Shown here piece by piece: positions 1,711-49,041 of a stretch of DNA of 64,000 bases (positions are counted from its first letter, which is position 1; each line of letters begins with the position of its first letter). Position numbers and translations under genes: made by a program. The stretch comes from a virus, in the IMG/VR virus record IMGVR_UViG_3300027969_000055, positions 32,001-96,000 of that record; one strand, 5' to 3'. The notes beneath the pieces are model-generated. The model worked only from the letters and a program-made list of their open reading frames with translations. It searched no databases and was not told the DNA's origin.

Positions 1711-2088
1711 ATGCAGCAATTAGATGAATTTATTGAGTATCTCTATACGGTTGAAGAAAATTCAACCTCTCTAAACCAAGATCAAGTAAAAAAACTTCAA
1801 ATGATTCAGTCAAAGGTTACTGATATTGTAAATAAAGTTGAATCTATTGCAACTAATGCAGTTAATCAATTACAGCCAGCCACCCAACCTCAACTAGAAT
1901 TACAATTAGCTGAAAATTCAGTATTTAGATTTGGTGAATTTGCTCAGATTAACGAGAAGATTGTACACCGTGGTAACAAATGGGTTGTTATGAATAAAAA
2001 GGGTACTAAAGTTTTAGGTACGCATCCAACTAGAGAAAAAGCAGTTAAACAGTTACAGGCAATTGAAATAAGTAAAGCTAGTCACTAA
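1711..2088 (+). CDS. Hypothetical protein with internal FxxF-INE motif and small basic C-terminal domain
   Basis: 125 aa; VFRFGEFAQINE then KIVHRGNKWVV...LGTHPTREKA. Confidence 0.75.
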   Translation: MQQLDEFIEYLYTVEENSTSLNQDQVKKLQMIQSKVTDIVNKVESIATNAVNQLQPATQPQLELQLAENSVFRFGEFAQINEKIVHRGNKWVVMNKKGTKVLGTHPTREKAVKQLQAIEISKASH

Positions 2089-2858
2089 TGAAATTACAAA
2101 GATTCCAACAGTTTATTAATGAGGCCAACCGCTGGTCAGAGGATCCATTCTTATACGCTCAATATGCAGAGTTGTTTACTGATTTTGGTTTTGAAGCAGA
2201 CATTCCTGACCTGATTCATGCAGTTGAACAAAAATGGACTGACTTAAAAAACAACTATTGGTGGAATAGAGAAGGCCGACACTGGCGCAAAGATCATTTT
2301 GCACTTGACGTAAAGGTACACTCTTGGCCAGAGGCTGATACTGTTAGAGAAATACTAGGAGAACCGGATATGCCAGAAGAGGCAATTGATGATGAATGGT
2401 GGGTATGGATGAATGACACACGTGAAGGATTCGTTGACGACCTGTTTAGTCTCTATCCATGGATTGATGATATTAGTTGGGGAGGTAAAAGCGGCGGATG
2501 GTTATTATTAGCTCCACCTCATGAAGCTGAAGATGTACGTACTGATATTGATGACAGTTGTCAGGAATATGAACGTATTAAGGATGAAATAAAAGAAACC
2601 GGGGAGTTTGAAGAATTAGTAAATCAATCAAATGAAATTGACTATCAAGAATTAAAAGAGTTAGGGTTAGCCGATGAACTTTCTGAGATTGATGAGTTAG
2701 TAAAGGAATATGAGACAATTAAAGCATACTTAACTAAAGAGTTAACTGACTTAGCTCAATGGGAAGTTGACATGGAAGCAATACAAGCCAGAGTTAGTAA
2801 ATTTGAAGATAACGCTGAAGAATATTTTTATTTATGGTTAAAGAGTAGAGAAGATTAA
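2088..2858 (+). CDS. Acidic hypothetical protein, candidate internal head protein
   Basis: Begins MKLQRFQQFINE. Confidence 0.75.
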   Translation: MKLQRFQQFINEANRWSEDPFLYAQYAELFTDFGFEADIPDLIHAVEQKWTDLKNNYWWNREGRHWRKDHFALDVKVHSWPEADTVREILGEPDMPEEAIDDEWWVWMNDTREGFVDDLFSLYPWIDDISWGGKSGGWLLLAPPHEAEDVRTDIDDSCQEYERIKDEIKETGEFEELVNQSNEIDYQELKELGLADELSEIDELVKEYETIKAYLTKELTDLAQWEVDMEAIQARVSKFEDNAEEYFYLWLKSRED

Positions 2859-2864
2859 AGATAA

Positions 2865-2935
2865 ACGGACTTAGGACCGTAATAGCCTCGGCTATTTGAA
2901 CCTCTCGATATCGCTATCCGGGAGGTTCTTCGTTT
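2865..2935 (+). other. Three-hairpin structured element ending in a terminator-like stem
   Basis: acgg-acttagga-ccgt; aatagc-ctcg-gctatt; gaacctc...gaggttc followed by T-rich tract. Confidence 0.6.
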
Positions 2936-4471
2936 TTATCGACCAATAAATTTAGTAAGATCAAATCTGTGTTTGCTGACAATAAATTTCTCTTTAAGAT
3001 AAATGGTTTCTCTGGCTTTTCCGTGTTTTACAATATAGCCATCAAGATCATCAATTAAATCGTATACTGTAACTTCATGTTTTCCAGCAAGCTTACGCAT
3101 ACCTCGACCAATTGCTTGGCGAATTGTAACTTCTGATTTATAGCTCTCAGCAAAGATAATTTGGTTAACCCGCTTTAGGTCAATACCTGTAGCAAAAGTA
3201 CCATAGCTTGCAACAATGACTGCTCCAACTTCACGTTCCATCGCCTCTTTATAATCAGCACGGTCTCCTCCATCAACCCCACCGTCTATATAATATGCAT
3301 GTTCATTCCACTCTTTTATCTTATCACAAATACGTTGGCCGTATTGATCCTTTACGTTAATGAATAGAATTAGGGTATTACCGCCAAGTTTTTGGACAAA
3401 TGAAGAAATAAACTCAATTCGAGGTTCATATGAAATAATAAATGCACGCTCTGCATCAAATAATTCCTTACCGGCTTTACCTGATTCTCTAAGTGCTTTA
3501 TATTCTCTAACAAATGGCTCAGTTATTGGATAGTCTAGGTTAACCATTTTAATATAGACATTTGGTGAGTGCTCTTGATCAATTAAGAAACTTGACTTAA
3601 GCGTCATGCTTAATGGACCTAAGAATTCTTGAATCTTGAAAAAATCTGAATATTGTTCTTCAATTTTAATTGTACCTGAAAGTCCAAGTTTATATTCAAC
3701 ATTAGTTGATGCCAATAAAATATCTTTAATTGAAGCGCCTCTTGAGGTATGGCACTCGTCAATACAAATAACTGAAAATCGTTTAAAGAATTCAGGTTCT
3801 TTATTTTTTAAACTTTGATATGTAGAAATAACCAAATCAGCCTCTTCAAATTTTTCTTCAGAATATTTGTTTTGACCGCCTACTGATAGCACTGAATAAT
3901 TCATTAGGCCAGTATGGTAATCCTTTTCAAATTTCTCGGCAGTTTGGCCGACTAGCGAAATATTAGGAACTACGATTAGTGCTTTTTTATCTTTAGTGAT
4001 AATCCCTTTACGTTTTAGAAAAGAAATATAAATGTATAGGATTAGGGTTTTACCAGCAGAAGTTGCAAGTTCCTGAGAACAAAATTTATATTTTAAGGCT
4101 CGATGAGCTGCTTCAAGTTGATAATCATATGCATCAATTGGTAAACCGTCTAATAATACAGACGCAAATTTATCTAGTTGTTCTTTAGTAAATGATAGGT
4201 TAAGTAGATCATCTAAGCCATCAATGTTTATTTCGTAATCATATTTCTTGCCGAAATTAATAATTTCCTTCCATAAACCAACACCAATCTTAAGATCTAC
4301 ATCAATAAATTTATCATAACCATCCCATAATTTTCGTTTGTACAGCTTATTAAAATGATAGCCTTTTTGTCTTTTCCTAAAATATAGTTGCAAGTCCTTA
4401 AGCTCGCGCTTCATTTCGTGCTTAACTAATTGTAGGTGCTGACGGTCATTGGTTAATTTAAAAGTTAACAA
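2936..4471 (-). CDS. uvsW: UvsW-like SF2 DNA helicase
   Basis: ATSAGKT Walker A, IDECH, GLSGT, QAIGRGMR motif VI. Confidence 0.92.
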   Translation of the reverse strand: MLTFKLTNDRQHLQLVKHEMKRELKDLQLYFRKRQKGYHFNKLYKRKLWDGYDKFIDVDLKIGVGLWKEIINFGKKYDYEINIDGLDDLLNLSFTKEQLDKFASVLLDGLPIDAYDYQLEAAHRALKYKFCSQELATSAGKTLILYIYISFLKRKGIITKDKKALIVVPNISLVGQTAEKFEKDYHTGLMNYSVLSVGGQNKYSEEKFEEADLVISTYQSLKNKEPEFFKRFSVICIDECHTSRGASIKDILLASTNVEYKLGLSGTIKIEEQYSDFFKIQEFLGPLSMTLKSSFLIDQEHSPNVYIKMVNLDYPITEPFVREYKALRESGKAGKELFDAERAFIISYEPRIEFISSFVQKLGGNTLILFINVKDQYGQRICDKIKEWNEHAYYIDGGVDGGDRADYKEAMEREVGAVIVASYGTFATGIDLKRVNQIIFAESYKSEVTIRQAIGRGMRKLAGKHEVTVYDLIDDLDGYIVKHGKARETIYLKEKFIVSKHRFDLTKFIGR

Positions 4472-4485
4472 AGTAGTTGATAATT

Positions 4486-10865: not shown

Positions 10866-12428
10866 ATGTTTCTAAACGTAAAAAGACTATCAATATTCGA
10901 GAAGTTAATTCTTGAAACTGACTTGATTCAAATTGGATCAAGCGTTAGTGGCCTATTGGATAAAGCAAAGGAGGCTAATTCTAGACAAGAAAATGACTCT
11001 AATAAAAAGATTGATATAACTTCTTACGTTAATCAATTATTAGATTACCTGTTTAGCTTGGGAGAAGAAGAGCTTGATGCAAAGTTGAATGATCCAGCTT
11101 TTATGAAGGTGTTTAGTGATCCTAAAGTAAAGGACCTATTTGATACTTATTTTACTTACTTAGAGGATGAATTGCGAGGTTTTCGTGAAGAGTTAAGCCA
11201 AGCACTTAATGAACCTGAAATTAATGTTCAAAAAGTTGAGAAGATAACTCAAAAAATGATGATCTTTGCAGCTAGGACTCAAGTAGTTGAAAGAATTTAC
11301 ACAAAGCAGTCGGAAACTGGCCAATCGGAGTTTAGCACTGAAATTAATGAAAAGGTTAAAAAGATTCAACAAGACCTACTTGATATTTATGCGTTAAAGG
11401 TTATGCTACCAGCTAAAAAAACACAAGAGGCGTATTCACAATATCAAGCGGCCCAAACCGAAGAAGATAAAACTGAGGCGGCTACTAAAATTTTGTTAAG
11501 TATCGAAGCAGCTGACCAAATGTCAGAGGATATGCCGCCTGAGGTAGTTACTGGAATTGAAACAGCAAATGATGAATATCAGAAAAAGATTGAAAATGAT
11601 TTAGGAAAAGAAACCTTAGCAAACATATTATCAGGAGTTCATGTAAATAAAAACGTTGCATCATTGATTCGTAGAATATTTCAGTTTCAATATACAATGT
11701 GGACAAATGAAGATGATATTAACCGAGAAGCAAATTCGCTTAAAGTTAGTATTAACGGTTTTCCTGACGTATCGGAAGATGCTAAAGAATACCTACGTAG
11801 GCTAGTTGAAAATATCCAGGCTGAACTACTTAATAAAGCCAAAAACAAAGAATTTGATACTAAAAAATATAAGGGAATTCATTATGATTTCAATAAGAAA
11901 TTACCCCTATATGAAAGAACTGCACTACCTGTTACAGGTAAACAAATCGCAGATGATTCTAAATTAATGAAATTTAGAAAAGCTTCGCAAGATCTAATGG
12001 CACTTATTTTCGGCGCCGGCGGTGCACCCGATACTGAAACAGGTCGAGCATTTGCGGCAACTGGTAAGCATCTACACACGATCTATGCAAAAAGTCTCAA
12101 CGGCTTAGGTAAAGTTATCGGAAAAGCAATTGGAGGTAGAGAAGGTGAAATGAAGGCTGATGCTTATACTCGAATGTTTATATTAGACACATCAGTAGTT
12201 GATCAGAAAAAACCAAAACAAGTTAGTGAAGACGGCGGAGTATCTGCCCCAGGAGTAGCTATTCAAACCCCAGGCTCAATTGGATCAATGGGACCAATTA
12301 CACCGCCTACTCAAACTACATTAGGTTCAGGAGATAACTTTGGACCAAAAATTAATAAAAAGAAAACCAAAAAATCTTCATCCATTCTTGGATTTGCGGA
12401 TTTTATAAAAGAACAAAATAATTTATAA
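10866..12428 (+). CDS. Helical hypothetical protein, candidate virion internal protein
   Basis: 520 aa; IFEKLILE near N-terminus and ILGFADFIKE at C-terminus. Confidence 0.75.
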   Translation: MFLNVKRLSIFEKLILETDLIQIGSSVSGLLDKAKEANSRQENDSNKKIDITSYVNQLLDYLFSLGEEELDAKLNDPAFMKVFSDPKVKDLFDTYFTYLEDELRGFREELSQALNEPEINVQKVEKITQKMMIFAARTQVVERIYTKQSETGQSEFSTEINEKVKKIQQDLLDIYALKVMLPAKKTQEAYSQYQAAQTEEDKTEAATKILLSIEAADQMSEDMPPEVVTGIETANDEYQKKIENDLGKETLANILSGVHVNKNVASLIRRIFQFQYTMWTNEDDINREANSLKVSINGFPDVSEDAKEYLRRLVENIQAELLNKAKNKEFDTKKYKGIHYDFNKKLPLYERTALPVTGKQIADDSKLMKFRKASQDLMALIFGAGGAPDTETGRAFAATGKHLHTIYAKSLNGLGKVIGKAIGGREGEMKADAYTRMFILDTSVVDQKKPKQVSEDGGVSAPGVAIQTPGSIGSMGPITPPTQTTLGSGDNFGPKINKKKTKKSSSILGFADFIKEQNNL

Positions 12429-12430: not shown

Positions 12431-12868
12431 ATGAAATTAGTTAAAACATTTGAAAACTTTATGCATAGTGGGCCGGATACTGCTCATCAAGCTAACACCT
12501 TAGACATTCCACAACACGCTGCTGGAATGGACCATGAGTCTAATCATGAAGTTGAGAACTATATGTTCTTTGGAAATTTAAAAACACTTCAGCGTTTAAT
12601 TAATATCATGTTGGAAATGGACCCAATGAAGGTTGATCAAATATTAAAAAATGGTCATAATTGGGCAGAAGACCATATAACATCATCAAAAGATGATATT
12701 GAAGAAGTTGCAGATTTCTTAATGGGAGAAATGACCGAAAAGGAAACTTACGAATCTAGCACAATGTCATATTCATGTAATGAATGTGGTACAATGTATG
12801 AAGCGCATGAGATTAATGAAGACCACCTGTGCTCATGTGGTAGTAAATTAGAAGAAAATTGGGGATAA
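12431..12868 (+). CDS. Hypothetical protein with C-terminal Zn ribbon
   Basis: MKLVKTFENF start; CNECG...CSCG. Confidence 0.75.
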   Translation: MKLVKTFENFMHSGPDTAHQANTLDIPQHAAGMDHESNHEVENYMFFGNLKTLQRLINIMLEMDPMKVDQILKNGHNWAEDHITSSKDDIEEVADFLMGEMTEKETYESSTMSYSCNECGTMYEAHEINEDHLCSCGSKLEENWG

Positions 12869-12870: not shown

Positions 12871-13344
12871 ATGAAAAACAATTACGTTAAACCTTTCGGT
12901 ATATTTAATGAGTCATTAGAAGAGTCAGTATCTGCTGGTTCAAATTGGTATTATGGAATAGCTGATTGCCATGGATTAGAATCCTTTATGAAGGAACCAG
13001 ATATGGCTGATGCAAATGAGTTAGATGACCTATTTGACTTGGGGCTTAGTGATACTGATTCAAAAAACGATCCTGTTAAAAAGGAGTATGTTGGTAATTT
13101 ATCAATGATGCAAATGCGCTGTAGATACAATGGTCAACGTCATCCGGTTGTTTATAGAGCCAAATTATCAGAAGACGATGCCGATATGGTACAAGATCTA
13201 TTAGATAGCGGTGACTATATTAATGCACTTAATGTAGTTAAGGGAAATTCACAAGAAGTTCAATTAGCCAGAGGTGGAAATGGCTCAGCTGAAAAAGCTT
13301 GGAAGATGATTCCAAATCCGGATTTGGATCCAATGCACTATTAA
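12871..13344 (+). CDS. Hypothetical protein
   Basis: ATG 12871, MKNNYVKPFGIFNE. Confidence 0.72.
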   Translation: MKNNYVKPFGIFNESLEESVSAGSNWYYGIADCHGLESFMKEPDMADANELDDLFDLGLSDTDSKNDPVKKEYVGNLSMMQMRCRYNGQRHPVVYRAKLSEDDADMVQDLLDSGDYINALNVVKGNSQEVQLARGGNGSAEKAWKMIPNPDLDPMHY

Positions 13345-13378: not shown

Positions 13379-13684
13379 ATGAAGCTCTCAGTAGGTGACA
13401 AAATTAGGATTCACGTAGATGTGGAAGAAATGCAAAACGATTTGCTTGAAATGGTAGATGGCCAAGAAGCAATCGTTACCGAAATCTATCAAAATAGTTA
13501 TGAACCTGATGTCGATCGAATTGAAGTTGAATTAGTTAATCCAGTTGAGTTTCATGGACAAAACCTAGTGGTTGTTCCAGGTTTATATATGGATAATATT
13601 GAAAAGATTGAAAAAATTCAAGAAAGCAAGAAAACTAGTAACCGCTACTTACGTAGATTCGTTGGCACTTTTGCAAATTATTAA
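13379..13684 (+). CDS. Hypothetical protein, possible SH3/KOW-like fold
   Basis: LSVGDKIRI start, 101 aa. Confidence 0.68.
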   Translation: MKLSVGDKIRIHVDVEEMQNDLLEMVDGQEAIVTEIYQNSYEPDVDRIEVELVNPVEFHGQNLVVVPGLYMDNIEKIEKIQESKKTSNRYLRRFVGTFANY

Positions 13685-13686: not shown

Positions 13687-14214
13687 ATGAAGTCAGGTAT
13701 AAAATTGTTTGAAGCATTTTACGGAAAGGATTATTTAGAGCATGAATTTCACAAGTATGATATTGACGTTGAGTTCTATAGGACAGTTATTAGGTATCCA
13801 GCCGGTACAGACGTGGCAGATTTAGCCGAATTAGGCTTAGCTGACAATGTTGCTGAGATTGAAGATATTAGTTTTAATACAGTTAAGATTACCTATGAGA
13901 TGAAACCTTATTTTGATAATGAGGGAATTCCTGAAATTGACTTTATATTAAGGACTGTTTATATTGCTGGCGAGTATTCAATATGGGATGATAATATGGA
14001 GGAAGAAGATCGACATGACTTTGAAATTGAAGATGCTGGACCATTTGATGGTAGATTTCAAGTAAAATGGGGCGGATTACCCTTTTATCCAAAAAATATA
14101 TCGATTAGTGTTCCGTGGTCAACTATTAAAAATGGGGTTCAAACTAAACACCCATTTGACCCAAATGCACCAGAACCATCTAAATTTGGATATGAAATTG
14201 AAATTGGTGAATAA
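13687..14214 (+). CDS. Acidic hypothetical protein
   Basis: MKSGIKLFEAF start. Confidence 0.72.
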   Translation: MKSGIKLFEAFYGKDYLEHEFHKYDIDVEFYRTVIRYPAGTDVADLAELGLADNVAEIEDISFNTVKITYEMKPYFDNEGIPEIDFILRTVYIAGEYSIWDDNMEEEDRHDFEIEDAGPFDGRFQVKWGGLPFYPKNISISVPWSTIKNGVQTKHPFDPNAPEPSKFGYEIEIGE

Positions 14215-14278: not shown

Positions 14279-14286
14279 ATAAATAA
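14279..14286 (+). promoter_or_regulatory. Putative late promoter of baseplate operon
   Basis: ATAAATAA. Confidence 0.65.
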
Positions 14287-16957: not shown

Positions 16958-18453
16958 TGGCAGCAGTTAAAGATTTAATTATACAAACTCTTGACCCTAA
17001 ACTTACTCCTCCGAGTATTAGCGTACTTGATCTTGAAACTCCTGGATCAGATAAAAAGTTTAGGGATGCTGAACGGTCAGGTTATGCTCAGCAATTAGGT
17101 AAAAAATCTCCATTAATTAAAATTGGAAACTCTATCATTGCTCCAGAGAATGTAATATCAATGGATGTATCAATGAATTCAATTGTACCAACTATTCATG
17201 TAGCAGTAATTGATACAATGGGAACCTTAACTTCAAGAACGTATCCTAGAACAAGTTTATTGATCACGGCATTTGTTGCACAAAGTCATCCAAAACTAAA
17301 ATCATTTTCTCAATCTTTCTTAATTACAAATGTTCATTCAATACCATTAGGTTCTGGAGAAACTAGATATGATTTTTTTGGAGAATTATACGTTCCAAAT
17401 TTAAACGGAAATTTCATTAAATCGTATAATGGACTAACTTCAGCGCAAGCACTAAAAAAGATAGCTGAAGAGTTAGGCTTAGGCTTTGCAACAAATGAAG
17501 ATACCACAAACGATAAAATGACATGGATTAATCCTAACTTGAATTATAAATCATTTATTAAGCAAATAACCGATCACTCATATAAAAATGAAAAGTCTTT
17601 TTTTGAATGTTTTATTGATCGATATTATGTGCTTAATTTTATTAATGTTGAAAAACAATTTAAACAATTTAGCGATGATAAGGAAATATCAGACGGCTAT
17701 CCAGCAATATCAACTGACTCAATTGATACATCTAGAGCAGCGAGTGGAAATATTGTACAAGTACCGGACGCAACAATTAAACTTATTTTGACAAATTCAT
17801 CAACTGGTGATAAATCTTCTGAGCTGAAAATTTTAGAATATTCAATGATTGGTGAAAATGGAGATATTTTAAAAACTAAAGGTTTTAGAAAAAGAATTTT
17901 TGTTTATAAACATGGGGAAGCTGATCCTGTTAAAAATTGGTTTGTTGAACCTCTATCTGAACCGTCAGCAAATGGCGTAAGCGTATATCAATCTCCGGAT
18001 TTAAAGGATTATATTGATAATGATGTAGTTAAATGGATGGGTACAGATTATAGTAATTCACATTTGAATTATAAGTTTGCTAAGCTATTAAATAATCATA
18101 ATATGGCAGAAGCTGATAAAAATTCGTTGTTAGTTAAATTGCCTGGGTTTAATCATAATATACTTAAAGGAAGTAGAATTAAAGTAAATATATTTTCTAA
18201 CAGAGTTCAGCAGTTAAGTCATGATAAAATACAAAATGACTTGGCTGAACCGGTTGATTCGCAAAAATCTGATAATCCAATGGAAAGTAGAGCCTCTGCT
18301 GAAATATTAGATACATATTTAAGCGATACTTATTACGTAAAGAGTATTGAATATCACTATAATATTTTGGACCCGGAATATAAATTTAAAACAACAATGA
18401 TTTTAAGTAGAAAAAATTGGGTGCCTGAACCTAAGGTAGAAAATAAAGCATAA
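16957..18453 (+). CDS. Baseplate hub-like protein (gp27/VgrG-type)
   Basis: ALKKIAEELGL, YYVKSIEYHY; upstream of gp5. Confidence 0.55.
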   Translation: MAAVKDLIIQTLDPKLTPPSISVLDLETPGSDKKFRDAERSGYAQQLGKKSPLIKIGNSIIAPENVISMDVSMNSIVPTIHVAVIDTMGTLTSRTYPRTSLLITAFVAQSHPKLKSFSQSFLITNVHSIPLGSGETRYDFFGELYVPNLNGNFIKSYNGLTSAQALKKIAEELGLGFATNEDTTNDKMTWINPNLNYKSFIKQITDHSYKNEKSFFECFIDRYYVLNFINVEKQFKQFSDDKEISDGYPAISTDSIDTSRAASGNIVQVPDATIKLILTNSSTGDKSSELKILEYSMIGENGDILKTKGFRKRIFVYKHGEADPVKNWFVEPLSEPSANGVSVYQSPDLKDYIDNDVVKWMGTDYSNSHLNYKFAKLLNNHNMAEADKNSLLVKLPGFNHNILKGSRIKVNIFSNRVQQLSHDKIQNDLAEPVDSQKSDNPMESRASAEILDTYLSDTYYVKSIEYHYNILDPEYKFKTTMILSRKNWVPEPKVENKA

Positions 18454-18455
18454 TT

Positions 18456-19541: not shown

Positions 19542-19580
19542 TTATGATAATAGGTAAAGCGAAAAGTTAAAAAGTGTAAA

Positions 19581-21409: not shown

Positions 21410-23398
21410 TTGACTACTACTAATATTAAAAGTTTAAACCAGCCTGCTGTCCCAGAAAATTCAGTGTTTATCATTGAACATCTAAATGAAGCGGTTACGG
21501 TAACTAGAGAAAACAATGATGTTATTCTTGAAGGTACTGCGGCAGTTTTTGGAGTAATGAACGAAAACAATCGTATTTACGAAAAACAGGAATACTTACC
21601 TCATTTAACTTACTTAAATGAGAAGATCAAACAGCGTAGACTATTTGGTGAACTTGATCATCCACAAAAATTTGACGTTTCATTAGCTAATGTATCTCAC
21701 GTAATTGAGGGACTTACTTATGATGAACCAACTAATAGTGTAAAAATTAGACTTCGTCTATTAGATACACCATGCGGTAGAATTGCAAAAACCTTGGTTG
21801 AAGCAGGTTGTACTACTTCAATTTCTTCAAGAGCTGCAGGTAATGTTGCTGAGAATGGAAAGGTTAAATTAGCAAAAATATTCACATACGATTTGGTTGC
21901 AGAACCAGGTTTTGCACAAGCAGCGCTTGGCCAAGTATCTGAAAGTTTGCAAAATAATTATTCAGCAATCTTTGAATCACTAGATTCATTAAGAACTACG
22001 GCAATCACTACCAAGTTAACAGATATTTCTGAAAACTTTGGTTTCGAGGATTCTGTGAAGATTTACAGAATAAATAATCAAGAAATACCAACTAAACAAA
22101 ATAACACACAGCAAATGGCTAATGAGTTTGTAACAAAAGAAGAGATGAATCAGTATTCTGAACTGGTTAAAAAGAAATTTTCTTCACTACAAGAGAACAT
22201 CTCTAAAAACAACAAAGGTCTTCAAAAGATCAGCGAAAACGCAACCGAAGGAGAATCTCCAGTTGTTGCTAAAATGGTAGAATACGTTAACTATTTAGCT
22301 GGTGAAATGGAGCAATTGGTTGAATATTCTAACTATCTTTCAACAATGTTGAATCAAGGTATTAATTACACTGAGCATGTTGCAGAGAAAGTTAATACAG
22401 TAATCGACTATTCTGACTACTTAGCAGAAAAAGTAGAAAAGAATATTCAATACTCTGACTATCTAGGAGAGAAAGTTAATCAAAACATTAACTATTCTGA
22501 ATATATTGCAGAAAACGTAGAAAAAACAGTTGAATACGCTAACTACATTGCAGAAAACGTAGATAAAGGAATTCAATACACTGAATACGTTGCAGAAAGT
22601 GCAGAAAAAGGAATTAAGTATTCTAACTATTTAGCTGAAAACTTAGATGCAGCTATTAAATACTCAAACTATCTTGGAGAAAATCTTCAACAAGGTATTA
22701 AATACTCAGAATACATTGCTGAGACTCTAAATGAGAAAATTACACCATCTGCTTTAACTAAAACTCGTTCTTTACTTGGAGAAGTTAAAAAATTAAACGA
22801 AGGTGTAGAATTTGAAGTTAATGAAACTTCTTCAGTTGACGATTTAGTTGGAGCAGTTGATGGAATCTTAACTCACATTAAGTCAAATTCAGCTAAAGCT
22901 GTTTTGGAAAACAAATATCCATTCTTAAAATTGTTAAACGAAGGTCGTAAACAAGCATTCTATAATTTAGATCAAACTACTAAATCGGCAATCGTTGAAA
23001 CAATGCAAGGAGCGATCTACTTTAACGAAGGTGAAGTAGTTAATATTATGGAAGCTGTTCTTAACAAACAAGTTGAAAACACTCCTAACTATATTAAACT
23101 TATGCCAGCTGCATACAAGCAATTATTTGAAAGTATGACTGAAGGAGAAAGAAATTGGATGGCTTCTCAAGCTAACAACTTCACTCTAAATACTTCGTAT
23201 CAAGTTAAGTCTTTCTGGGATTCTCGCGATTTCAGAGGAATTAATGAAAGAATTGCAACTGAGACAATTATAAATAATAATTCTATTAACGAAAACCAAG
23301 GTAAAGAAGGTTACGTATCGTTAAACCAAATAAACGAAAGTCTACGTGGTTATTCTAATAACTACATGGACGCTCTTAAAAGAAGAGCACAAAATTAA
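21410..23398 (+). CDS. Prohead protease (gp21-like) fused to scaffold/core protein
   Basis: NENNRIY, GELDHP, ISSRAAG, YDLVAEPG; helical C-terminal two-thirds; TTG start. Confidence 0.9.
   Translation: MTTTNIKSLNQPAVPENSVFIIEHLNEAVTVTRENNDVILEGTAAVFGVMNENNRIYEKQEYLPHLTYLNEKIKQRRLFGELDHPQKFDVSLANVSHVIEGLTYDEPTNSVKIRLRLLDTPCGRIAKTLVEAGCTTSISSRAAGNVAENGKVKLAKIFTYDLVAEPGFAQAALGQVSESLQNNYSAIFESLDSLRTTAITTKLTDISENFGFEDSVKIYRINNQEIPTKQNNTQQMANEFVTKEEMNQYSELVKKKFSSLQENISKNNKGLQKISENATEGESPVVAKMVEYVNYLAGEMEQLVEYSNYLSTMLNQGINYTEHVAEKVNTVIDYSDYLAEKVEKNIQYSDYLGEKVNQNINYSEYIAENVEKTVEYANYIAENVDKGIQYTEYVAESAEKGIKYSNYLAENLDAAIKYSNYLGENLQQGIKYSEYIAETLNEKITPSALTKTRSLLGEVKKLNEGVEFEVNETSSVDDLVGAVDGILTHIKSNSAKAVLENKYPFLKLLNEGRKQAFYNLDQTTKSAIVETMQGAIYFNEGEVVNIMEAVLNKQVENTPNYIKLMPAAYKQLFESMTEGERNWMASQANNFTLNTSYQVKSFWDSRDFRGINERIATETIINNNSINENQGKEGYVSLNQINESLRGYSNNYMDALKRRAQN
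22070..22077 (+). promoter_or_regulatory. Internal late promoter ahead of in-frame ATG 22115
   Basis: ATAAATAA followed by A/C-rich leader. Confidence 0.55.
22274..22735 (+). repeat. 11 degenerate 14-aa (42-bp) repeats in scaffold region
   Basis: xIxYSxYLAExVxx units from MVEYVNYLAGEMEQ to GIKYSEYIAETLNE. Confidence 0.9.
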
Positions 23399-23416: not shown

Positions 23417-25138
23417 ATGGCAACAAAAATTTTCAAAAAATTGAACGACGCTTCAATTAAGGAAACTTGGACCCCAGTTTTAGAAGGTTATGGTGCAAAC
23501 GTTACAGCTCGCCCTTGGTTAGTTGACTACGCTCACAATCATGCTATCTTCGATAACGCAGGTTCAATCAATGAAGCAAACACTGGAGTAGCTCCAGGTT
23601 TATTCTTACAACAACCTGGTTCTATCAGTGCTATGGGTGCAATTAGTTCTCCAACGAGTTCTATGACTCCATTCACAGGTGGTGCTAAAAACGGTTACGG
23701 TGCTTCTGTATCTGGTTCTGGTGATAAATTCCCAAGCCTTTTACCAGTTGCAATCCAAGTAGCTGCTAAAACTATTGGTTTCGACCTAGTTGGTGTAGTT
23801 CCTATGGATTCTCCAGTAGGTTTCCTACCTTACTTGGATTATGTATACCAAGGTGGTAACATCGACAAACAATATGAGCCTTATTTAATTAAGATCACTG
23901 GTTTGTTAGAAAATGCTGCAGGTTCTACAGTAAACGGTATTGCAAATGGTGATAAATTCCCAGTATCTAAATTGCCTTTTACTGAAGGTCTTAACTACGG
24001 TATTAACGAAAGTAATACTGACTTAGTTTTACAATTCGTTGGTAAATCACGTGTTGATGGTTCTCCAATCTTCAAAGTTATCCTATCTCATGATGGTGGT
24101 ACTCTTGCTGATTACTTTGCAGCTGACGTTGATATTCAACCAGCAAATGCAACTGACGTTTCAGGTACTGCGGTAGTAACTTTCCGTACAGCTGATAACA
24201 AAGTTGAATTAGTTTCTGCTTTAGAAAACCATATTTCTGGTTTTACTTCAGTATCTGACGCTGATTACGCTACATCTGATTTCAACGGTCCTTATATGGG
24301 ATCTACTGGAACTCAAATGGAAGGTATGGCTCGTCAAACTGCTGAAACTTCTAAATTCCGTCAAATGGGTCTTCGTATGTTCACTAAGTTCATCGAAGCA
24401 AAAGGAGATCAAGTTTCTATTTCAGCAACTGTTGAACAAATCCAAGATCTTAACCGAGTTTGGAACTTTGACGTAATCTCTATGTTAGAGAATGTAGCAG
24501 TTAACGAATTAGCTCAATCAATCAACAAAAAGTTAGTTGACCGTGTTCTTAATTTAGGATCAGTTCACGCTACTGCTGTTGAAGGTGTTGAAGGTGCAGG
24601 TATCACTACTTTGGACCTAACTGTTGGAACAACTGGATTTGAGAATATCTCAACTCTACAACGTCGTGTTGTAACTAAAATTCTTGAAATGGCTAACTTG
24701 ATTTATCATAGAGGTCGTTTCGGTGCAGGTACATACATCGTTACTAACGGTCGTGTTGCTTCTGCTTTAGCAGATGTAGCTGGTTACTCTTTCGCTCCAT
24801 TCAATAATGATCTTCCATCTACTGCTGGTCAATTGTATCCTGCAGGTAAAGTACATGGTTTAACCATCTACGTTGATCCTAACTTGAAATTCAGCGATAA
24901 CCGTATCCATATCGGTCGTAAAGGTGCTGATGAAGAGCCAGGTGTTAAATTCCTTCCATATATCATGGCAGAGAGTCTTCAAACAATTGCAGAGGGAACT
25001 TTCTCTCCGAAAATTGGTATGAAATCTCGTTATGCTATTACCGAAGCTGGATGGCACCCAGAAACTCAATACATTACGTTGGCTGTAACAGGTCTAGGAG
25101 TATTGACTGGTTCAACTCGCCCTGCTTCTTCTTACTAA
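23417..25138 (+). CDS. Major capsid protein (gp23-like)
   Basis: LVGVVPMDSPVG, EQIQDL, FLPYI, PKIGMKSRYAI; follows scaffold. Confidence 0.92.
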   Translation: MATKIFKKLNDASIKETWTPVLEGYGANVTARPWLVDYAHNHAIFDNAGSINEANTGVAPGLFLQQPGSISAMGAISSPTSSMTPFTGGAKNGYGASVSGSGDKFPSLLPVAIQVAAKTIGFDLVGVVPMDSPVGFLPYLDYVYQGGNIDKQYEPYLIKITGLLENAAGSTVNGIANGDKFPVSKLPFTEGLNYGINESNTDLVLQFVGKSRVDGSPIFKVILSHDGGTLADYFAADVDIQPANATDVSGTAVVTFRTADNKVELVSALENHISGFTSVSDADYATSDFNGPYMGSTGTQMEGMARQTAETSKFRQMGLRMFTKFIEAKGDQVSISATVEQIQDLNRVWNFDVISMLENVAVNELAQSINKKLVDRVLNLGSVHATAVEGVEGAGITTLDLTVGTTGFENISTLQRRVVTKILEMANLIYHRGRFGAGTYIVTNGRVASALADVAGYSFAPFNNDLPSTAGQLYPAGKVHGLTIYVDPNLKFSDNRIHIGRKGADEEPGVKFLPYIMAESLQTIAEGTFSPKIGMKSRYAITEAGWHPETQYITLAVTGLGVLTGSTRPASSY

Positions 25139-25256: not shown

Positions 25257-25622
25257 ATGAGCAATTCTGTTTTAAACTACTCACAATTTCTTTTAGAAAA
25301 GAAAGCAATCAACCAAGAAATGGCTGAATTACCTAAAGGTAAAGGTTCAAAATCTAACACTACTGTAAAACCAGCAATGTCTGAACTTCCTAAAGGAAAA
25401 GGAAAGGGTATTAGCAAATCAGTAAAACCTGAAATGGCTACTCTTCCTAAAGGAAAAGGTAAAATGATTGGCAAATCAGTAGATACAAAAGTTTCTAAAT
25501 TACCTACAACTAAAGGTTCTTCACCTAAAAAATCAGTAGACTCTAAAATGTCTAAATTGGTAATTAAAGGTAAAGCTATTAGTAAGAAAGTTGAGCCTAA
25601 CATGGCTAAAATGCCTAAGTAA
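25257..25622 (+). CDS. Lys-rich repeat protein, candidate DNA-binding core protein
   Basis: About six 19-aa repeats with LPKGKG; ATAAATAA at 25216-25223. Confidence 0.75.
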   Translation: MSNSVLNYSQFLLEKKAINQEMAELPKGKGSKSNTTVKPAMSELPKGKGKGISKSVKPEMATLPKGKGKMIGKSVDTKVSKLPTTKGSSPKKSVDSKMSKLVIKGKAISKKVEPNMAKMPK

Positions 25623-25641: not shown

Positions 25642-25947
25642 ATGTCAGATCAAAACAAACATAAGGTCACGTCCTTTCAGTCGTTCGTTGTTCAAGAAAA
25701 TTCAATAAAGGATTTAGTTGGAAAAACTGATGATGAGCAATTGGACTTAGATGATGCTCGTAGTATCGGAAAGAAGATTTCAAAAATGAAAGGTGAAGAT
25801 CGTAAGAAATACGTTGGAATCGTTAATTTTATGGGAGCATCTTGTAGAATTTACAATGAGATTTGGGCTAACTATAAACCAGTTGATCCATCAACTAAAA
25901 AATCAAACCGTGGAAAAGAATTCCAAGGTGAAAAAGAAGTAGGTTAA
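25642..25947 (+). CDS. Hypothetical protein
   Basis: 101 aa; KVTSFQSFVVQE. Confidence 0.7.
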   Translation: MSDQNKHKVTSFQSFVVQENSIKDLVGKTDDEQLDLDDARSIGKKISKMKGEDRKKYVGIVNFMGASCRIYNEIWANYKPVDPSTKKSNRGKEFQGEKEVG

Positions 25948-27715: not shown

Positions 27716-28372
27716 ATGGACATTTTTAATGTAAAACGCAGAGACAATCCTTCAATGGATAGTTATATGGACCTAAAGAAACCTGGTTTTGGCGGTCCAA
27801 ATTCAAAGGAAGACTTTGATAAATCAAAAAGAAAATCACTTGAAGGATACCAACGAGTAGTTGACAGAAATGCCGATTTCGAAGGTGGAAATTTCAATCA
27901 TAATTATGATCCAACGTGGAAAGCAGTAACCCGTGATTTAATTTCAAGAACTGCAAAGAAAAAACCATTTAATCCAATGTACGCAAAACAAACAATTGCA
28001 ACAGTTAATGCTGTTGAAGAAGGTACTATCAAACGCTTTGAACAATTCGTTAATGAAAACGAAGGTTTTAATATGTTCGCTGAAGCCGAAGAAGAAACTC
28101 CAGAAATGGAAGAAACTCCAGAAATGGAAGAAGAATCAGAAGTAGATCAAGAACAAGTAGAAATGCTAATGGCAGATTTCGGAGACGATCTTGAAGAAAT
28201 GATTGATGAAATCGCTGAAAAAATGGAACTTGAAAAAGAAGAAGTTTGTGATATTTTATGTGCAGCTATTAAAAAGATGTGCGCTCCTGCTGAAGAAGAG
28301 GAAGAAGAAAATCAAGAAGGTGAAGAAGAATCTACTGAAGACGAAGAAGAAGAAGAAGAAACCGAAGCATAA
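27716..28372 (+). CDS. Hypothetical protein with highly acidic C-terminus
   Basis: Internal IKRFEQFVNE then Glu-rich tail. Confidence 0.75.
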   Translation: MDIFNVKRRDNPSMDSYMDLKKPGFGGPNSKEDFDKSKRKSLEGYQRVVDRNADFEGGNFNHNYDPTWKAVTRDLISRTAKKKPFNPMYAKQTIATVNAVEEGTIKRFEQFVNENEGFNMFAEAEEETPEMEETPEMEEESEVDQEQVEMLMADFGDDLEEMIDEIAEKMELEKEEVCDILCAAIKKMCAPAEEEEEENQEGEEESTEDEEEEEETEA

Positions 28373-28375: not shown

Positions 28376-28729
28376 ATGAAGCTGATTAAATTATTTGAAC
28401 AATGGGTTTCTGAAGAAGAAAAGGCCGTAGATTCTCCTAAAGCTGAGGATACTACAAAACCATCTAATTCATATAATCTTAAAGTATCAACTAATCAAGT
28501 TGGTAACTTTGAAGTTGTCGGAACATCTGAGTCAGAATTAACAACTGACTCGACTAAGTCATTTAACGTAATTAGCTCTACTAATGCAAGTATTAAGAAC
28601 GGCGCAACTATTATGGTTTCTCCAAAAGCTGATACTGATGGAGAATTTGATATTGTTATTGTAAATGACAAAAGTAAACCGGAAGAATCATTAATTTATT
28701 CAGGCACAGTAGAAACTACTAAATCGTAA
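28376..28729 (+). CDS. Hypothetical protein
   Basis: MKLIKLFEQWVSE start. Confidence 0.72.
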   Translation: MKLIKLFEQWVSEEEKAVDSPKAEDTTKPSNSYNLKVSTNQVGNFEVVGTSESELTTDSTKSFNVISSTNASIKNGATIMVSPKADTDGEFDIVIVNDKSKPEESLIYSGTVETTKS

Positions 28730-38840: not shown

Positions 38841-40223
38841 TTAAGCCACTTTTTCACTTGATAATTGCTCTTCTAATTTTTTCATTTGATTCTTTGTATC
38901 AACTCTACCGTTGTATAATCTAGTAAGAATTGTTCGAGCGGCTGAATCATTTTTATTTGTGAAGACCGTATCGTTTTTTGTTAATATTTGGTCAGGTTGT
39001 ATTTCAATACCAGGTTTGGTTTTTCCTAAATAAGAGTCTGGTGAAATATTAAATTGAATTTGAATGTTTGGATACATTGATGCAAAGTCAAAACATGAAA
39101 CGTATTTGTAATATCCAGGTTCAGGCTTTGCAACATAGGCTCCATCGTATGTTGCATCTTCTTCCAATTCTCTTCGGTCGTTTGCCATATACCGGCCTCG
39201 GTCTAGAAACTCACGACACATTAATGATTCAGTAATGAATACTGCTGAGAATACTTTTGAAACATCGACCTTTGCAAATTTTGAAATTGCAAATGCAACA
39301 TCAAGTAGTCCAAGTTTATCTTCAATCAACTTAATAAGAATTGTATCGATGATATTATACTTAATAAAGTTTTCAATATCTTGTTGAGCTTCCATCATGG
39401 TTGCATATTCACTATGGAGTTTGGTTGTTCCTAATACTAAATTCGCAATATAGTCTAACTTATAATTCTCAACTACTTTATAAGGTTTAGTATTCATAAA
39501 TACTTCCATGTAATCTAAAAGACCTAAATGAACCGGCATTTTTGATTTACCAATTAATGTTTTAGAAGGCATGGTTTTCATTGGATCAATATCTAATTTT
39601 TTACAACGGTTAATTAGATAAATCCAGTCAAATCCAATAACATTCCAACCAGTTAAGAATGGAATCTTTGGAAGAACTTTATGGAAGAAGGTTTTCATTA
39701 ACTCTTCTTCAGTTTCAAAGAACAAATATTTAAGAGTAAAGGTTTGACCGTGAGCTTTGAAATATTCATTGACTTCATCTTGCATTTGTAAAATTGGAGA
39801 CTCTTCTAATTTCTTCATGGTTGACATTACAAAACAAATATTATCTTCATTAACAAATGTAATCAAGTTAACTGGCATTGCTGCTTTTGCTGGATCAGGA
39901 AACTCTTGCGAAGTTAACTGAATCTCAATATCTAAATAGTACTTCTTTGGGCTATCATCTGAATAAATTGAAGCAAGTTCGGTTTCGTCTAATCTGGTTT
40001 GAGTTAATTCCTCAAGTCTAAAACGACTTAACCATTTACCTTGAACCTTCTTTAGGAACTTTCCATCCCAATTTCTGTGTTCAGTTGGAGTTGGAGTTAA
40101 GTTCCAATTATAGAGATCATGTGGAAGTATTGGCTTTTTCATAAAGCCAATGTTACCGTCTGGTTTATAATAAGAAATAACAAGAGTCGAGTCTTCTGTA
40201 TGAAATTCTGTGCTTACAATCAT
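38841..40223 (-). CDS. Family B DNA polymerase, N-terminal half (exonuclease plus motif A; gp43A-like)
   Basis: ExoI LDIE, ExoII GWNVIGFD, ExoIII YNIID, motif A SCFDFASMYPN; stops in the first finger helix. Confidence 0.93.
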   Translation of the reverse strand: MIVSTEFHTEDSTLVISYYKPDGNIGFMKKPILPHDLYNWNLTPTPTEHRNWDGKFLKKVQGKWLSRFRLEELTQTRLDETELASIYSDDSPKKYYLDIEIQLTSQEFPDPAKAAMPVNLITFVNEDNICFVMSTMKKLEESPILQMQDEVNEYFKAHGQTFTLKYLFFETEEELMKTFFHKVLPKIPFLTGWNVIGFDWIYLINRCKKLDIDPMKTMPSKTLIGKSKMPVHLGLLDYMEVFMNTKPYKVVENYKLDYIANLVLGTTKLHSEYATMMEAQQDIENFIKYNIIDTILIKLIEDKLGLLDVAFAISKFAKVDVSKVFSAVFITESLMCREFLDRGRYMANDRRELEEDATYDGAYVAKPEPGYYKYVSCFDFASMYPNIQIQFNISPDSYLGKTKPGIEIQPDQILTKNDTVFTNKNDSAARTILTRLYNGRVDTKNQMKKLEEQLSSEKVA

Positions 40224-44016: not shown

Positions 44017-44589
44017 TTAGTCTTCAATTTCCATAATACCTTCCAGAACTCGAATAGAGTCAGTTGAGTCATTATGCAAAATACCGGTTCCGCCAGCATC
44101 AGTCCATTTATTTAGTTTAGTATCAAAATCGTCAATTAAAATGTCAAATTCATTTCTGGCATATTTCCATTTGTCTTGATCTAAAATAATTCTGGTTTTA
44201 CTTGTAAAATCTTCAGGTTTAGTAACAGGTTCTTCGTCAATATGGAGGTGTAATTTAATCCATTTTGTTTTACCGGCTAAACATTCAGGACTTCTACTTG
44301 GAGCAGACAAGATAATTGGATCGTATTGTTTTAAATAGTCCCATAATTCTCTGCCGTCTTGCGTCCATGGTAAATCTGACCAAAAGTCTTCTCCCAGTTT
44401 ATCTAGAATTGGCCAAATTGAATTTTTACCATGAAGTTTTTCGTATGCATGTGGAGAAAGTTTTTCAGGATTTTCTGGGATTTCCATAAAGCCTCGATTA
44501 AAATCTACTAAGACTCCGTCTAGGTCGCAGAAAATTGTGTATTTTCCGCCTCTTTTTTCAAAGATAAATTGGTCAAATTTCTTAAGCAT
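44017..44589 (-). CDS. HAD 5'(3')-deoxyribonucleotidase-like protein
   Basis: FCDLDGVL, ILSAP, K.KW, LIDD; start taken at MLKKFDQFIFE. Confidence 0.85.
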   Translation of the reverse strand: MLKKFDQFIFEKRGGKYTIFCDLDGVLVDFNRGFMEIPENPEKLSPHAYEKLHGKNSIWPILDKLGEDFWSDLPWTQDGRELWDYLKQYDPIILSAPSRSPECLAGKTKWIKLHLHIDEEPVTKPEDFTSKTRIILDQDKWKYARNEFDILIDDFDTKLNKWTDAGGTGILHNDSTDSIRVLEGIMEIED

Positions 44590-44914
44590 TTTCTTTAAGT
44601 TCAAATTGGGTATCTTGATCTTTGTTAATTATGGCCAAAAGATCGTTTGCCATTACTAGGTGATATCCGATACCGTCCCAAGTTACGTCAAGGCCTGAAT
44701 ATCTTTGATATAGAACCTTATCACCAGCTTTAACTGGGCATTTTGAATTATCTGGAACTGAATGCCCTACTGAGATTACTGTTCCAGTATTTGGTCTCTT
44801 ACGTGCATCAACTGATAGAATAATTCCAGTTTCAGTTTTTTTCTCTACTGTATCTGGTAAAACCAGGATTCTCTCGAATAGCGGCATAAAGCCTTTTGTT
44901 ATATCAACACTCAT
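44582..44914 (-). CDS. groES: GroES co-chaperonin
   Basis: PLFERILV...KTETGIIL...GTVISVG...VKAGDKVLY. Confidence 0.9.
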   Translation of the reverse strand: MSVDITKGFMPLFERILVLPDTVEKKTETGIILSVDARKRPNTGTVISVGHSVPDNSKCPVKAGDKVLYQRYSGLDVTWDGIGYHLVMANDLLAIINKDQDTQFELKENA

Positions 44915-46026: not shown

Positions 46027-46027
46027 T

Positions 46028-47435: not shown

Positions 47436-47440
47436 TCAAA

Positions 47441-47470: not shown

Positions 47471-47494
47471 AAATGTGAACTTTTAGTCTAAAAA

Positions 47495-47686: not shown

Positions 47687-47707
47687 AATTTCAAATATTT
47701 TTTGTAT

Positions 47708-47734
47708 CTTATATTTGAGAAATCCACCCGGTTT
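47708..47734 (-). promoter_or_regulatory. Putative promoter AAACC-N16-TATAAG
   Basis: Recurring motif. Confidence 0.62.
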
Positions 47735-47740
47735 TAAATA

Positions 47741-48466
47741 TTAGTGATATTTGTTTGAAAATTTAGCTGCTGGGTATACTTTTTTAGCAAAAGCTATCCA
47801 AGAAGCCATAACTTTTTCAAATTCAGATTGAGAAATTACACCAGTTTTAATAAATGGGTTTAGGTATTCCGAAAATTCCTGATCAATTGGGACTCTTTTC
47901 TTTTTAGCAGATGCATACATGCCGGCTACCATTGCTGGAATTTCATCAGCTAGTAAAAAATACTGATAATTATTTTGAGCACGAGCCCTTACTGATTTTC
48001 GGGTATTGATAATATGCCCAGCCCTTTGGTTTATACCTTTTTGTAAAAGATGTTCAAGCTCGTGTCGGATATTATCAACAAGTTTATAATTTAGCGCTGG
48101 ATAACATTGAGGTTCGGCTTCTGGACTAATGTAAATAACTACTTCAATTTCAGGTTCTTCTACTGAATTTGCATTTGGAATAAATGCATTTGCGTCTATT
48201 GCAAAACCTTTATTTTCAAAATTAATTATCTCTGAAGGAATACCGCTAAACTCCTTAGCGATAGAAGTATCAAATTCCTCAACTCTAACCACTTTAATTG
48301 ATAAAGTAAATTCAAGTGGATTAGTATATGTAAATTCTTTAAATATTTCTTTGCCTAGCTTAGACCCTGAGGTTTTCTTAATTACGCTAAATAAATCTTT
48401 AGCAAAAATTGAGGCAAGAGAATCGTACTTTGATTCAAATATGAATTGTGAAAATCGTTTTATCAT
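47741..48466 (-). CDS. Putative HExxH metalloprotein
   Basis: MIKRFSQFIFE start; RHELEH...DEIPA. Confidence 0.65.
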   Translation of the reverse strand: MIKRFSQFIFESKYDSLASIFAKDLFSVIKKTSGSKLGKEIFKEFTYTNPLEFTLSIKVVRVEEFDTSIAKEFSGIPSEIINFENKGFAIDANAFIPNANSVEEPEIEVVIYISPEAEPQCYPALNYKLVDNIRHELEHLLQKGINQRAGHIINTRKSVRARAQNNYQYFLLADEIPAMVAGMYASAKKKRVPIDQEFSEYLNPFIKTGVISQSEFEKVMASWIAFAKKVYPAAKFSNKYH

Positions 48467-49041
48467 TTTTTAGATTTGATAAAATTTACTTCTAATTTAT
48501 TGGTTGACGTCGATAGTTTAGCATCAAAATCTATATCAATATCACCTTTGTCAATACCTAGTTTTTTACTAGACATTGCTGATTTTAGTTTATCATAAAC
48601 TTCTTTATCTAGAAAACCTTCACCTCTAAGGGCATCAACTATGTCATTTTTCTTTGAATCTAATTGGTTATCCGTGATCCATTTATCCAAATCGGCTTGA
48701 TTAATTTGATATTCTTTAAATCGCTTAACTCCTCCGCCTCCAGTATATTTAGAATGCCATTTCTTATCATCATCAATTAATACTACGTTAATATCGCCAG
48801 TTTGACCAGCGGTTGGAGCTGGCGCATTTGGGTCTGGTGGTAATTCAGCAGTTGCAAATGGATCAGTTGGAGCCGGAGCCGTTGCTGGCGCTGGTGAATT
48901 TTCGGAAGGTAATGGAGCAGGTTCAACCGCTGGAGCGGCGTCAGTCTCACTAGGAGATGGGGGTTCAACTGGTGGTGGAGTTGGAGCAGGTTCATCAGCT
49001 TCCAATAATAACTTAAATTGTCTAAAGTCTAGTATTTCCAT
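48463..49041 (-). CDS. Pro/Ala-rich hypothetical protein
   Basis: MEILDFRQFKLLLE then Pro/Ala linker; late-promoter-like sequence near 49062. Confidence 0.72.
   Translation of the reverse strand: MEILDFRQFKLLLEADEPAPTPPPVEPPSPSETDAAPAVEPAPLPSENSPAPATAPAPTDPFATAELPPDPNAPAPTAGQTGDINVVLIDDDKKWHSKYTGGGGVKRFKEYQINQADLDKWITDNQLDSKKNDIVDALRGEGFLDKEVYDKLKSAMSSKKLGIDKGDIDIDFDAKLSTSTNKLEVNFIKSKK

Follow-up and report, generated by a model that had tools for sequence, protein, structure and literature searches.

A candidate capsid targeting peptide of the T4 type on numerous unrelated proteins of an uncultured phage

The internal proteins IPI, IPII and IPIII of bacteriophage T4 carry an N-terminal capsid targeting sequence (CTS; Mullaney and Black 1996, cited in PMC9026906 and PMC5694885). 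According to PMC9026906, IPIII needs no more than its first ten residues to be incorporated into the head; residues 4 and 7 are the main determinants of targeting and residues 8 and 10 those of processing, and the prohead protease gp21 cuts after L/I-X-E. For the hypervariable internal-protein loci of T-even phages, PMC3012670 describes diverse proteins behind one conserved CTS. In the T4 genome (NC_000866), IPII and IPIII start with MKTYQEFIAE and IPI with MKTFKEFTSTTTPVSTITE. Here we analyze a short peptide of similar appearance, hereafter the tag, in a stretch of 64,000 nucleotides from the IMG/VR virus record IMGVR_UViG_3300027969_000055 (the window), which comprises bases 32001-96000 of a single virus contig of 116,370 bp. 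An initial annotation of the window had noticed this peptide on about 15 proteins and, referring to the MKTYQEFIAE-type targeting sequences of T4 internal proteins, had proposed that a position-flexible address tag loads many proteins, including enzymes, into the head for injection. We consider it probable that the tag is a T4-type CTS which is removed by the prohead protease, and that it is attached to 11-14% of the proteome in this phage and in a relative with a 270-kb genome.

The analysis of the tag is based on a greedily assembled set of open reading frames (ORFs), comprising 118 proteins and covering 96% of the contig. As core pattern we used [ILVM]xx[FY]xx[FW] within the first 25 residues; a stricter form adds x{2,4}E. 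The core pattern is present at the N-terminus of 20 proteins, compared with about 3.1 +/- 1.7 in shuffled sequences, whose maximum was 9 in 1000 shuffles of whole proteins and 10 in 1000 shuffles of the N-terminal 25 residues only. When the glutamate is added, 13 proteins remain versus 0.5 in the shuffles (maximum 4), so that the enrichment over shuffled controls, which the initial annotation had named as a check, is found in both forms of the pattern. Beyond the first 25 residues there is no general enrichment on the contig (38 matches versus about 43 expected). Judged by eye, 17 proteins of the contig carry a clear tag, 10 in the window and 7 upstream of it. A scan for gapped tripeptides that uses no prior pattern ranks IxxFxxF, FxQF and KxFxxF at the top in this genome, and none of these ranks at the top when T4 and the Tenacibaculum phage PTm1 are scanned in the same way.

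The same signal recurs in related phages. The relative mentioned above (IMG/VR contig G001, 270,136 bp, rated 100% complete, 322 ORFs) has homologs of 101 of the 118 contig proteins, so that the contig of 116,370 bp is probably a fragment. In this relative, the core pattern is found in 40 of the 322 proteins versus 8.9 expected (maximum 20 in 300 shuffles), and the pattern with glutamate in 30 versus 1.4 (maximum 5); about 37 of its ORFs are tagged, and FxQF leads the unbiased tripeptide scan (p 3e-13). Among IMG/VR relatives, we furthermore kept 80 loci centred on capsid genes, whose capsid proteins are 60-98% identical. Their 950 unique ORFs contain the core pattern 77 times versus 26.3 expected (maximum 42) and the pattern with glutamate 48 times versus 4.0 (maximum 10). 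When a position matrix trained on the tags of the 270-kb relative is scanned over this genome, 20 matches exceed the threshold, which about three shuffled matches reach as well: 16 are N-terminal, one is C-terminal, in the gene at 10866, and three are internal. The N-terminus of UvsX (MAKSTMDAFAKFNDLLE) lies just above the matrix threshold, with 9.0 and 13.3 bits, and is probably a false positive.

The consensus of the tag reads M-K-(H/K)-[ILV]-K-x-[FY]-x-Q-[FW]-[LVI]-x-E. For a profile, 54 tags from the two genomes were aligned with the first aromatic residue at position 0. Position -3 is occupied by I (27), L (15) or V (11), position 0 by F (44) or Y (10), position +3 by F (43), W (10) or I (1), and position +4 mostly by L (13), V (12) or I (9); position +6 is E in 31 tags. 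The spacing of the two aromatic residues, the aliphatic residue at +4 and the glutamate at +6 corresponds to Y4, F7, I8 and E10 of the T4 CTS, and exactly this spacing is realized in 8 N-termini of this contig and in 20 of the 270-kb relative. The first aromatic residue lies at residue 4-12 here (mostly 5-9), as opposed to residue 4 in T4. Codons vary among the copies of the tag; its conservation is therefore at the protein level, and a nucleotide-level repeat or an mRNA element as the source of the likeness is ruled out.

The proteins behind the tags are unrelated to each other, as the initial annotation had asserted. After removal of the tags, BLAST sorts the 54 tagged proteins of both genomes into 41 clusters, with 13 pairs of orthologs between the genomes as the sole links. 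This excludes a paralogous family as the source of the shared tag. Out of the 17 carriers on the contig, 14 have an ortholog in the 270-kb relative; 13 of these orthologs retain the pattern, and the fourteenth shows a variant of it, Y-x-x-Y. Retention extends to orthologs whose remainder has dropped to 31-35% identity. The presence of enzymes among the carriers was likewise confirmed. Those with a recognizable function are, on this contig, a lysozyme (PF00959), a MoxR-like AAA ATPase and a 5'-3' deoxyribonucleotidase (phrog_2643), and in the 270-kb relative a NUDIX protein, a VanY peptidase, a protein with a peptidoglycan-binding domain, a lysozyme and a HAD enzyme; in addition, a weak match to 2H phosphoesterases/Acb1 in the relative stays below the cut-off (25 bits versus 27). 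Several carriers are small acidic proteins (pI 4.1-4.6) with low sequence complexity, and three of the carrier genes lie beside those for the capsid and the tail tube. Tagged genes tend to be clustered, with five of them within about 6 kb on this contig. In the 270-kb relative, about 11 neighboring genes between 213884 and 226316 start with tags of the MKH[IL]KLFE type, while their bodies are unrelated.

All ten N-terminal copies listed for the window in the initial annotation were found exactly as quoted. On the plus strand, the tag MKLQRFQQFINE (2088..2123; matrix 23.6 bits) opens a protein of 256 aa without a family match, whose ortholog in the 270-kb relative is only 31% identical overall and retains the tag. 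Three more follow: MKLVKTFENF of a 145-aa protein (12431..12460), which fits the core pattern, remains below the matrix threshold, has no [ILV]xE nearby and is retained in the ortholog; MKNNYVKPFGIFNE of a 157-aa protein (12871..12912; 8.8 bits), for which the start is 12871 and not the TTG at 12859; and MKSGIKLFEAF of a 175-aa protein (13687..13719), which fits the core pattern and whose ortholog has the Y-x-x-Y variant. Directly 3' of the capsid gene, MSNSVLNYSQFLLE (25257..25298; a matrix match) starts a low-complexity protein of 121 aa. The tag is the best-conserved part of this protein, and V5, Y8, F11, E14, K15 and K16 are invariant in 10 aligned sequences. The 121-aa protein (25257-25622, +) is very basic (pI 10.3) and composed of LPKGKG-type repeats, which presumably makes it comparable to the basic internal proteins that associate with DNA in T4. 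The two remaining tags on this strand are MSDQNKHKVTSFQSFVVQE of a 101-aa protein (25642..25698; 11.7 bits) and MKLIKLFEQWVSE of a 117-aa protein (28376..28414; 22.0 bits). On the minus strand, MLKKFDQFIFE (44557..44589; a matrix match) precedes the 5'-3' deoxyribonucleotidase (HAD) domain, MIKRFSQFIFE (48434..48466; 24.3 bits) belongs to a protein of 241 aa in which an RHExEH motif is conserved, and MEILDFRQFKLLLE (49000..49041; 12.0 bits) to a Pro/Ala-rich protein of 192 aa.

Structure prediction and domain boundaries place the tag outside the folded part of its carriers. The AlphaFold2 model of the RHExEH protein (47741-48466, -) has a pLDDT of 91; residues 1-11, i.e. the tag, are predicted to be unstructured, and the first helix begins with residue 12, immediately after the glutamate of the tag. 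A Foldseek search with this model yielded no match at E <= 0.001 and only weak hints of a nucleotidyltransferase fold. Similarly, the HAD and NUDIX domain matches begin just after the tag.

Copies at other positions are not enriched as a whole, and the claim that the tag is position-flexible is borne out for two of the genes named for it. The sequences quoted for internal and C-terminal copies are correct, but the positions given with them are gene starts rather than sites of the motif. The 218-aa protein at 27716-28372 (+) contains IKRFEQFVNE at residues 105-114 (28028..28057), which obtains the highest matrix score of both genomes (29.5 and 29.3 bits; best nulls 10.4 and 13.4) and is present in all 38 unique homologs, down to 30% identity. 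This internal tag separates a basic N-terminal half from a very acidic C-terminal half. The second gene (10866-12428, +) encodes 520 aa and ends with ILGFADFIKE at residues 507-516 (12384..12413; 10.2 bits); its C-terminal ILGFADFIKEQNN recurs unchanged in all 8 relatives that cover the C-terminus, while the preceding segment is variable. More ambiguous is FRFGEFAQINE at residues 72-82 of the 125-aa protein starting at 1711 (1924..1956, +), as it falls below the matrix threshold and the ortholog in the 270-kb relative has QSFSNYMELKE (12.5 bits) at its C-terminus. The two other candidates look like chance: FPSFSEF at residue 391 of the 6625 gene product fails the matrix scan, and so does the C-terminal copy of the gene at 13379, whose C-terminus is not retained in the ortholog.

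The window also encodes the partners that a T4-type CTS would need. The major capsid protein (23417..25138, +) belongs to the T4 gp23 family (Pfam Gp23 PF07068, 142.6 bits, above the curated cut-off); it is about 27% identical to T4 gp23 over the aligned part, and its N-terminus aligns to the N-terminus of gp23. Immediately upstream, a gene for 662 aa (21410..23398, +) encodes a prohead protease fused to a long helical extension. Its protease domain (Peptidase_S77, approximately residues 38-165) scores 39.9 bits against a curated cut-off of 27 bits. BLASTP aligns it to T4 gp21 with an E-value of 4e-9, with LDHP and ISSRA opposite LNHP and VSSRG, the His and Ser motifs, and Foldseek aligns the model of the protease to the gp21 structure 5JBL with an E-value of 8e-9 and a TM-score of 0.70-0.74. 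Potential cleavage sites accompany most tags: 13 of the 17 tags here and 26 of the 37 in the relative have an [ILVF]xE no more than 6 residues away, usually followed by S, N, A or G. The peptides predicted to be removed would be 10-26 residues long and end with [ILVF]-x-E.

The extension of the protease contains a pattern that coarsely coincides with that of the tag. Between residues 292 and 445 (22283..22744, +) there are 11-12 tandem repeats of 14 residues, Y-x-x-Y-[LIV]-[AG]-E, whose Tyr residues do not vary among 23 sequences. In the AlphaFold2 model of the whole 662-aa protein, confidence is restricted to the protease domain and to a helical domain at the C-terminus, and the repeats are predicted to be helical with a pLDDT below 50. 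With 37 [ILV]xE sites, or 5.6 per 100 aa, the protein differs from the other proteins inspected (0-4). The common denominator [FYW]xx[FYW][ILVM]xE is matched 26 times on the contig versus 5.5 expected, namely 8 times N-terminally, 8 times in the repeats and 10 times elsewhere; the equivalent ORF in 60 related loci contains 4-10 matches, and among 1301 ORFs of the 80 related loci at least 3 matches are found only in these 60 orthologous protease ORFs. The pattern shared by tag and repeat consists of four positions and was defined after both had been seen. It suggests that the tag imitates either a unit of the scaffold or an extended protease site. According to a more specific model, the tag would copy a single unit of the 14-residue repeat Y-x-x-Y-[LIV]-x-E, so that a tagged protein, whether the tag is N-terminal, internal or C-terminal, would join the core through the contacts of the repeats and be released by the same cuts. 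Since the tags are not retrieved by a matrix built from repeat units (see below), we regard this model as possible, if doubtful. A complex prediction for residues 1-40 of the 121-aa protein and residues 270-470 of the protease yielded no answer (score 0.00) and speaks neither for nor against binding.

In terms of expression, most carriers belong to late-promoter units, in line with the initial annotation. The motif ATAAATAA(C), which we take to resemble the T4 late promoter, is located 23-51 nt upstream of six tagged genes, and most other carriers are situated downstream in such units. It also precedes the protease, tail-tube, sheath and other structural genes. The sequence ATAAATAAC is found 41 nt upstream of the tagged 121-aa gene (25257) and 28 nt upstream of the tagged 192-aa gene (49041). 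A gene for a gp55-like late sigma factor (61631..62050, +; phrog_234, E 4e-17) is in keeping with these promoters. More generally, ATAAATAA(C) occurs 23-35 nt upstream of many structural gene starts, e.g. at 14279, 21383, 27083, 40854 and 62100 of the window, and out of 58 ATAAATA sites on the whole contig, 29 lie within 80 nt upstream of an ORF on the same strand.

According to PHROG and Pfam scans, the phage is a distant T4-type myovirus, which also encodes tail sheath, tail tube, UvsX, SbcCD-like nucleases, SSB and ribonucleotide reductase. Its capsid protein is most similar to those of uncultured megaphages, of Lak phages (30-38% identity) and of PTm1 (32%) when compared with deposited phages; a megablast search with 24 kb of the window against the deposited phage collection revealed no match, i.e. 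no near-identical DNA. A full set of chaperones is encoded, consisting of GroEL (58381-59961, -; phrog_5725, E 3e-158), GroES (44582-44914, -) and a DnaJ-domain protein (20434-21342, +), the latter two identified by profile scans, together with a ClpA/B-like ATPase of 659 aa (413-2389 of locus L002, +; phrog_4871, E 2e-248). The family-B DNA polymerase is apparently split into two genes about 38 kb apart (38841-40223, -, and 1-1026, -): the 460-aa part matches the N-terminal part of polymerase profiles, and the 540-aa ORF, which extends upstream of the window, contains a KxxxNSxYG-like motif that was spotted by eye. Between the ribonucleotide reductase and GroEL genes, an ORF of 1453 aa (53919-58280, -) has no PHROG match at E 1e-5. 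Three tandem copies of about 27 residues, which read LYL[KN][AS]GPSAPKQLGAGQEE(D/E)-rich, are present in a protein of 379 aa (25951-27090, +) whose gene is situated between those of the small tagged proteins and the tail tube.

Taken together, the pattern, the protease and the capsid protein agree with the capsid loading proposed by the initial annotation at the level of sequence, through the T4-type protein pair and the four-position match, whereas packaging, cleavage and injection are inferred. We favor the following model. An N-terminal peptide is attached to unrelated late proteins on a scale far above that of T4. Its two aromatic residues would hold the tagged protein in the core of the assembling prohead, and this core would be built from the protease fused to its long, repeat-bearing, scaffold-like extension. 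After closure of the shell, the gp21-type serine protease would cut behind the glutamate of [LVI]-x-E, and the mature protein thus freed would stay inside the head with the DNA and could leave with it at infection.

Several explanations compete with the T4-type CTS. The tag could address proteins to the prohead core, but its carriers could mainly be assembly or core components, comparable to gp67, gp68 and gp22 of T4; such carriers would be cut up and expelled during maturation rather than retained and injected. The position of three carriers beside the capsid and tail-tube genes would fit this, as would the small, acidic, low-complexity carriers and the protein with the internal tag, whose basic half is followed by an extremely acidic tail, just as T4 gp67 ends in an acidic run. 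Yet many carriers, namely the lysozyme, the HAD nucleotidase, NUDIX, VanY and the RHExEH protein, are enzymes with a fold of their own and thus unlikely to act as scaffold, and the density of [ILV]xE in carriers is low, with 1.4-1.5 per 100 aa versus 5.6 in the scaffold-like protein, so that we judge this explanation to be unlikely. Even lower is the probability that the tag serves another machinery, such as the phage chaperones, the Clp-like ATPase, a localization signal or a feature of translation start. The phage does encode GroEL, GroES, the DnaJ-domain protein and the ClpA/B-like ATPase, and among the carriers of both genomes, three have peptidoglycan as their target, a possible hint at export. 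Nevertheless, the peptide is too little hydrophobic for a signal peptide, most carriers are enzymes of the cytoplasmic type, the varying codons are incompatible with an mRNA element, and both the following [LVI]-x-E and the positional match to T4 would be left unexplained.

Still less credit is due to the idea that the peptide is no address label but an extended site of the prohead protease, a propeptide that would keep proteins inactive until they are cut. In its favor, aromatic-xx-aromatic-[LIV]-x-E recurs 8 times in the extension of the protease, and the pattern is also present as FGSFLTE in the N-terminal region of T4 gp23, where we take it to be the maturation site. Against it, the four of 17 tags that lack a nearby Glu site still possess the aromatic pair, a tail of 11 residues that is modelled as unstructured would hardly inhibit an enzyme, and in T4 the aromatic pair affects targeting and not processing, as described in PMC9026906. 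Finally, the tags might reflect chance or the composition of AT-rich gene starts, given a G+C content of 32-36% in which Lys, Phe, Asn and Glu are common. This was tested and can practically be dismissed: shuffling of the first 25 residues gives 3.2 versus 20 observed, with none of 1000 shuffles above 10, the equally AT-rich PTm1 exhibits no enrichment, and the tags are conserved across orthologs.

The preferred reading, a T4-type CTS removed by the prohead protease, also has observations that speak against it. What is more difficult to reconcile with cleavage is that an [ILVF]xE is missing from the vicinity of 4 of the 17 tags on this contig and of 11 of the 37 in the relative, that one carrier is without any [ILV]xE, and that [ILV]xE is only slightly rarer in carriers (observed/expected 0.87 and 0.93, versus 1.13 and 1.15 in the remaining proteins), a borderline difference. 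Some carriers would be unusual head cargo, i.e. the deoxyribonucleotidase, the NUDIX protein and the MoxR-like AAA ATPase of 520 aa. The match to T4 comprises four positions of a peptide of 10-13 residues, which is too short for common descent to be told from convergence, and loading and cleavage in this phage and its close relatives are predictions from sequence. A matrix built from 254 repeat units fails to retrieve the tags, with one of five and none of four matches being N-terminal. Moreover, PTm1 as the nearest cultured phage (capsid protein 32% identical) has no tag enrichment, with 13 versus 10.9 expected and, when the glutamate is included, 0 versus 1.4.

The CTS of T4 is known from T-even phages, where few internal proteins depend on it; here, a signal with the same four positions is encountered in a distant lineage. 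If our interpretation is true, this signal would date back much further than assumed, or be much easier to re-invent, and the set of packaged and possibly injected proteins of uncultured large phages would be predictable from their sequences. Such a phage would bring a ready-made enzyme kit into the cell, with lysozyme, peptidase, NUDIX, nucleotidase and 2H-like enzymes. Wherever T4-type capsids are to be loaded with proteins, the tags would represent a natural panel of variants. If the tag in fact mimics the repeat, sequence would suffice to reveal the complete packaged and injected proteome of these uncultured phages, about 37 proteins in a genome of 270 kb, and the cell-wall hydrolases and nucleotide-degrading enzymes among them could counter host defenses on arrival.

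In the literature searched, we found no published description of such a tag expansion or of such a scaffold repeat. PTm1 possesses a fusion of protease and scaffold of its own (ORF-300, 18063-19757), with Trp-rich repeats (E-x-W-I...T-K-x-L-S-E). In the cyanophage S-SM1, which like PTm1 represents an intermediate lineage, there is no enrichment of the tag either (1 versus 0.9 expected), and its single T4-like N-terminus, MKKFSAFLNE, belongs to a 'cytidylyltransferase' of 387 aa in gene cluster T4-GC190. Supplement file 2 of PMC3037559 marks this cluster 'proteomic data: YES' (virion), which makes it a weak experimental anchor with n=1.

In phiKZ, 201phi2-1 and SPN3US, according to PMC5694885 and PMC9026906, many head proteins are cut after Glu by a diverged gp21 homolog, and the propeptides of ejection proteins are thought to target the prohead. 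These propeptides mostly exceed 100 residues, have no short motif in common and are processed at S/A-x-E, whereas the tags described here are a shared motif of 10-20 residues ending with [LIV]-x-E, without the long propeptides of phiKZ and SPN3US. The tags moreover recall a different system at the functional level. Encapsulin cargo-loading peptides are short, C-terminal, and load unrelated enzymes into a shell of the HK97 fold; they attach to the shell protein itself, stay on the cargo and follow a different motif. Our tags are N-terminal except for a single conserved internal and a single conserved C-terminal copy, and in the PHROG and Pfam scans no encapsulin shell gene was detected, the sole shell gene found being that of the gp23-family capsid protein.

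With the internal-protein loci of T-even phages, the tagged genes have in common that one address peptide stands before diverse, fast-changing proteins and that they are clustered. They differ in that the carriers are spread genome-wide and include recognizable enzymes; an anti-restriction role would be hypothetical here. The likeness to the T4 CTS itself lies in an N-terminal peptide of 10-20 residues on unrelated proteins, in a genome that contains both a gp21-type protease and a gp23-type capsid protein. The scale is different: among 264 ORFs of T4, only five N-terminal matches are found versus 1.4 expected, i.e. IPI-III, 61.1 and one more. T4 gp61.1 (NC_000866, 18966-19130) is a hypothetical protein of 54 aa that starts with MKTFKEFIKE, close to the targeting sequence of IPI-III. 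Beyond scale, the phage described here is set apart from T4 by the conserved internal and C-terminal copies of the tag and by a prohead protease that is fused to a repeat-bearing extension.

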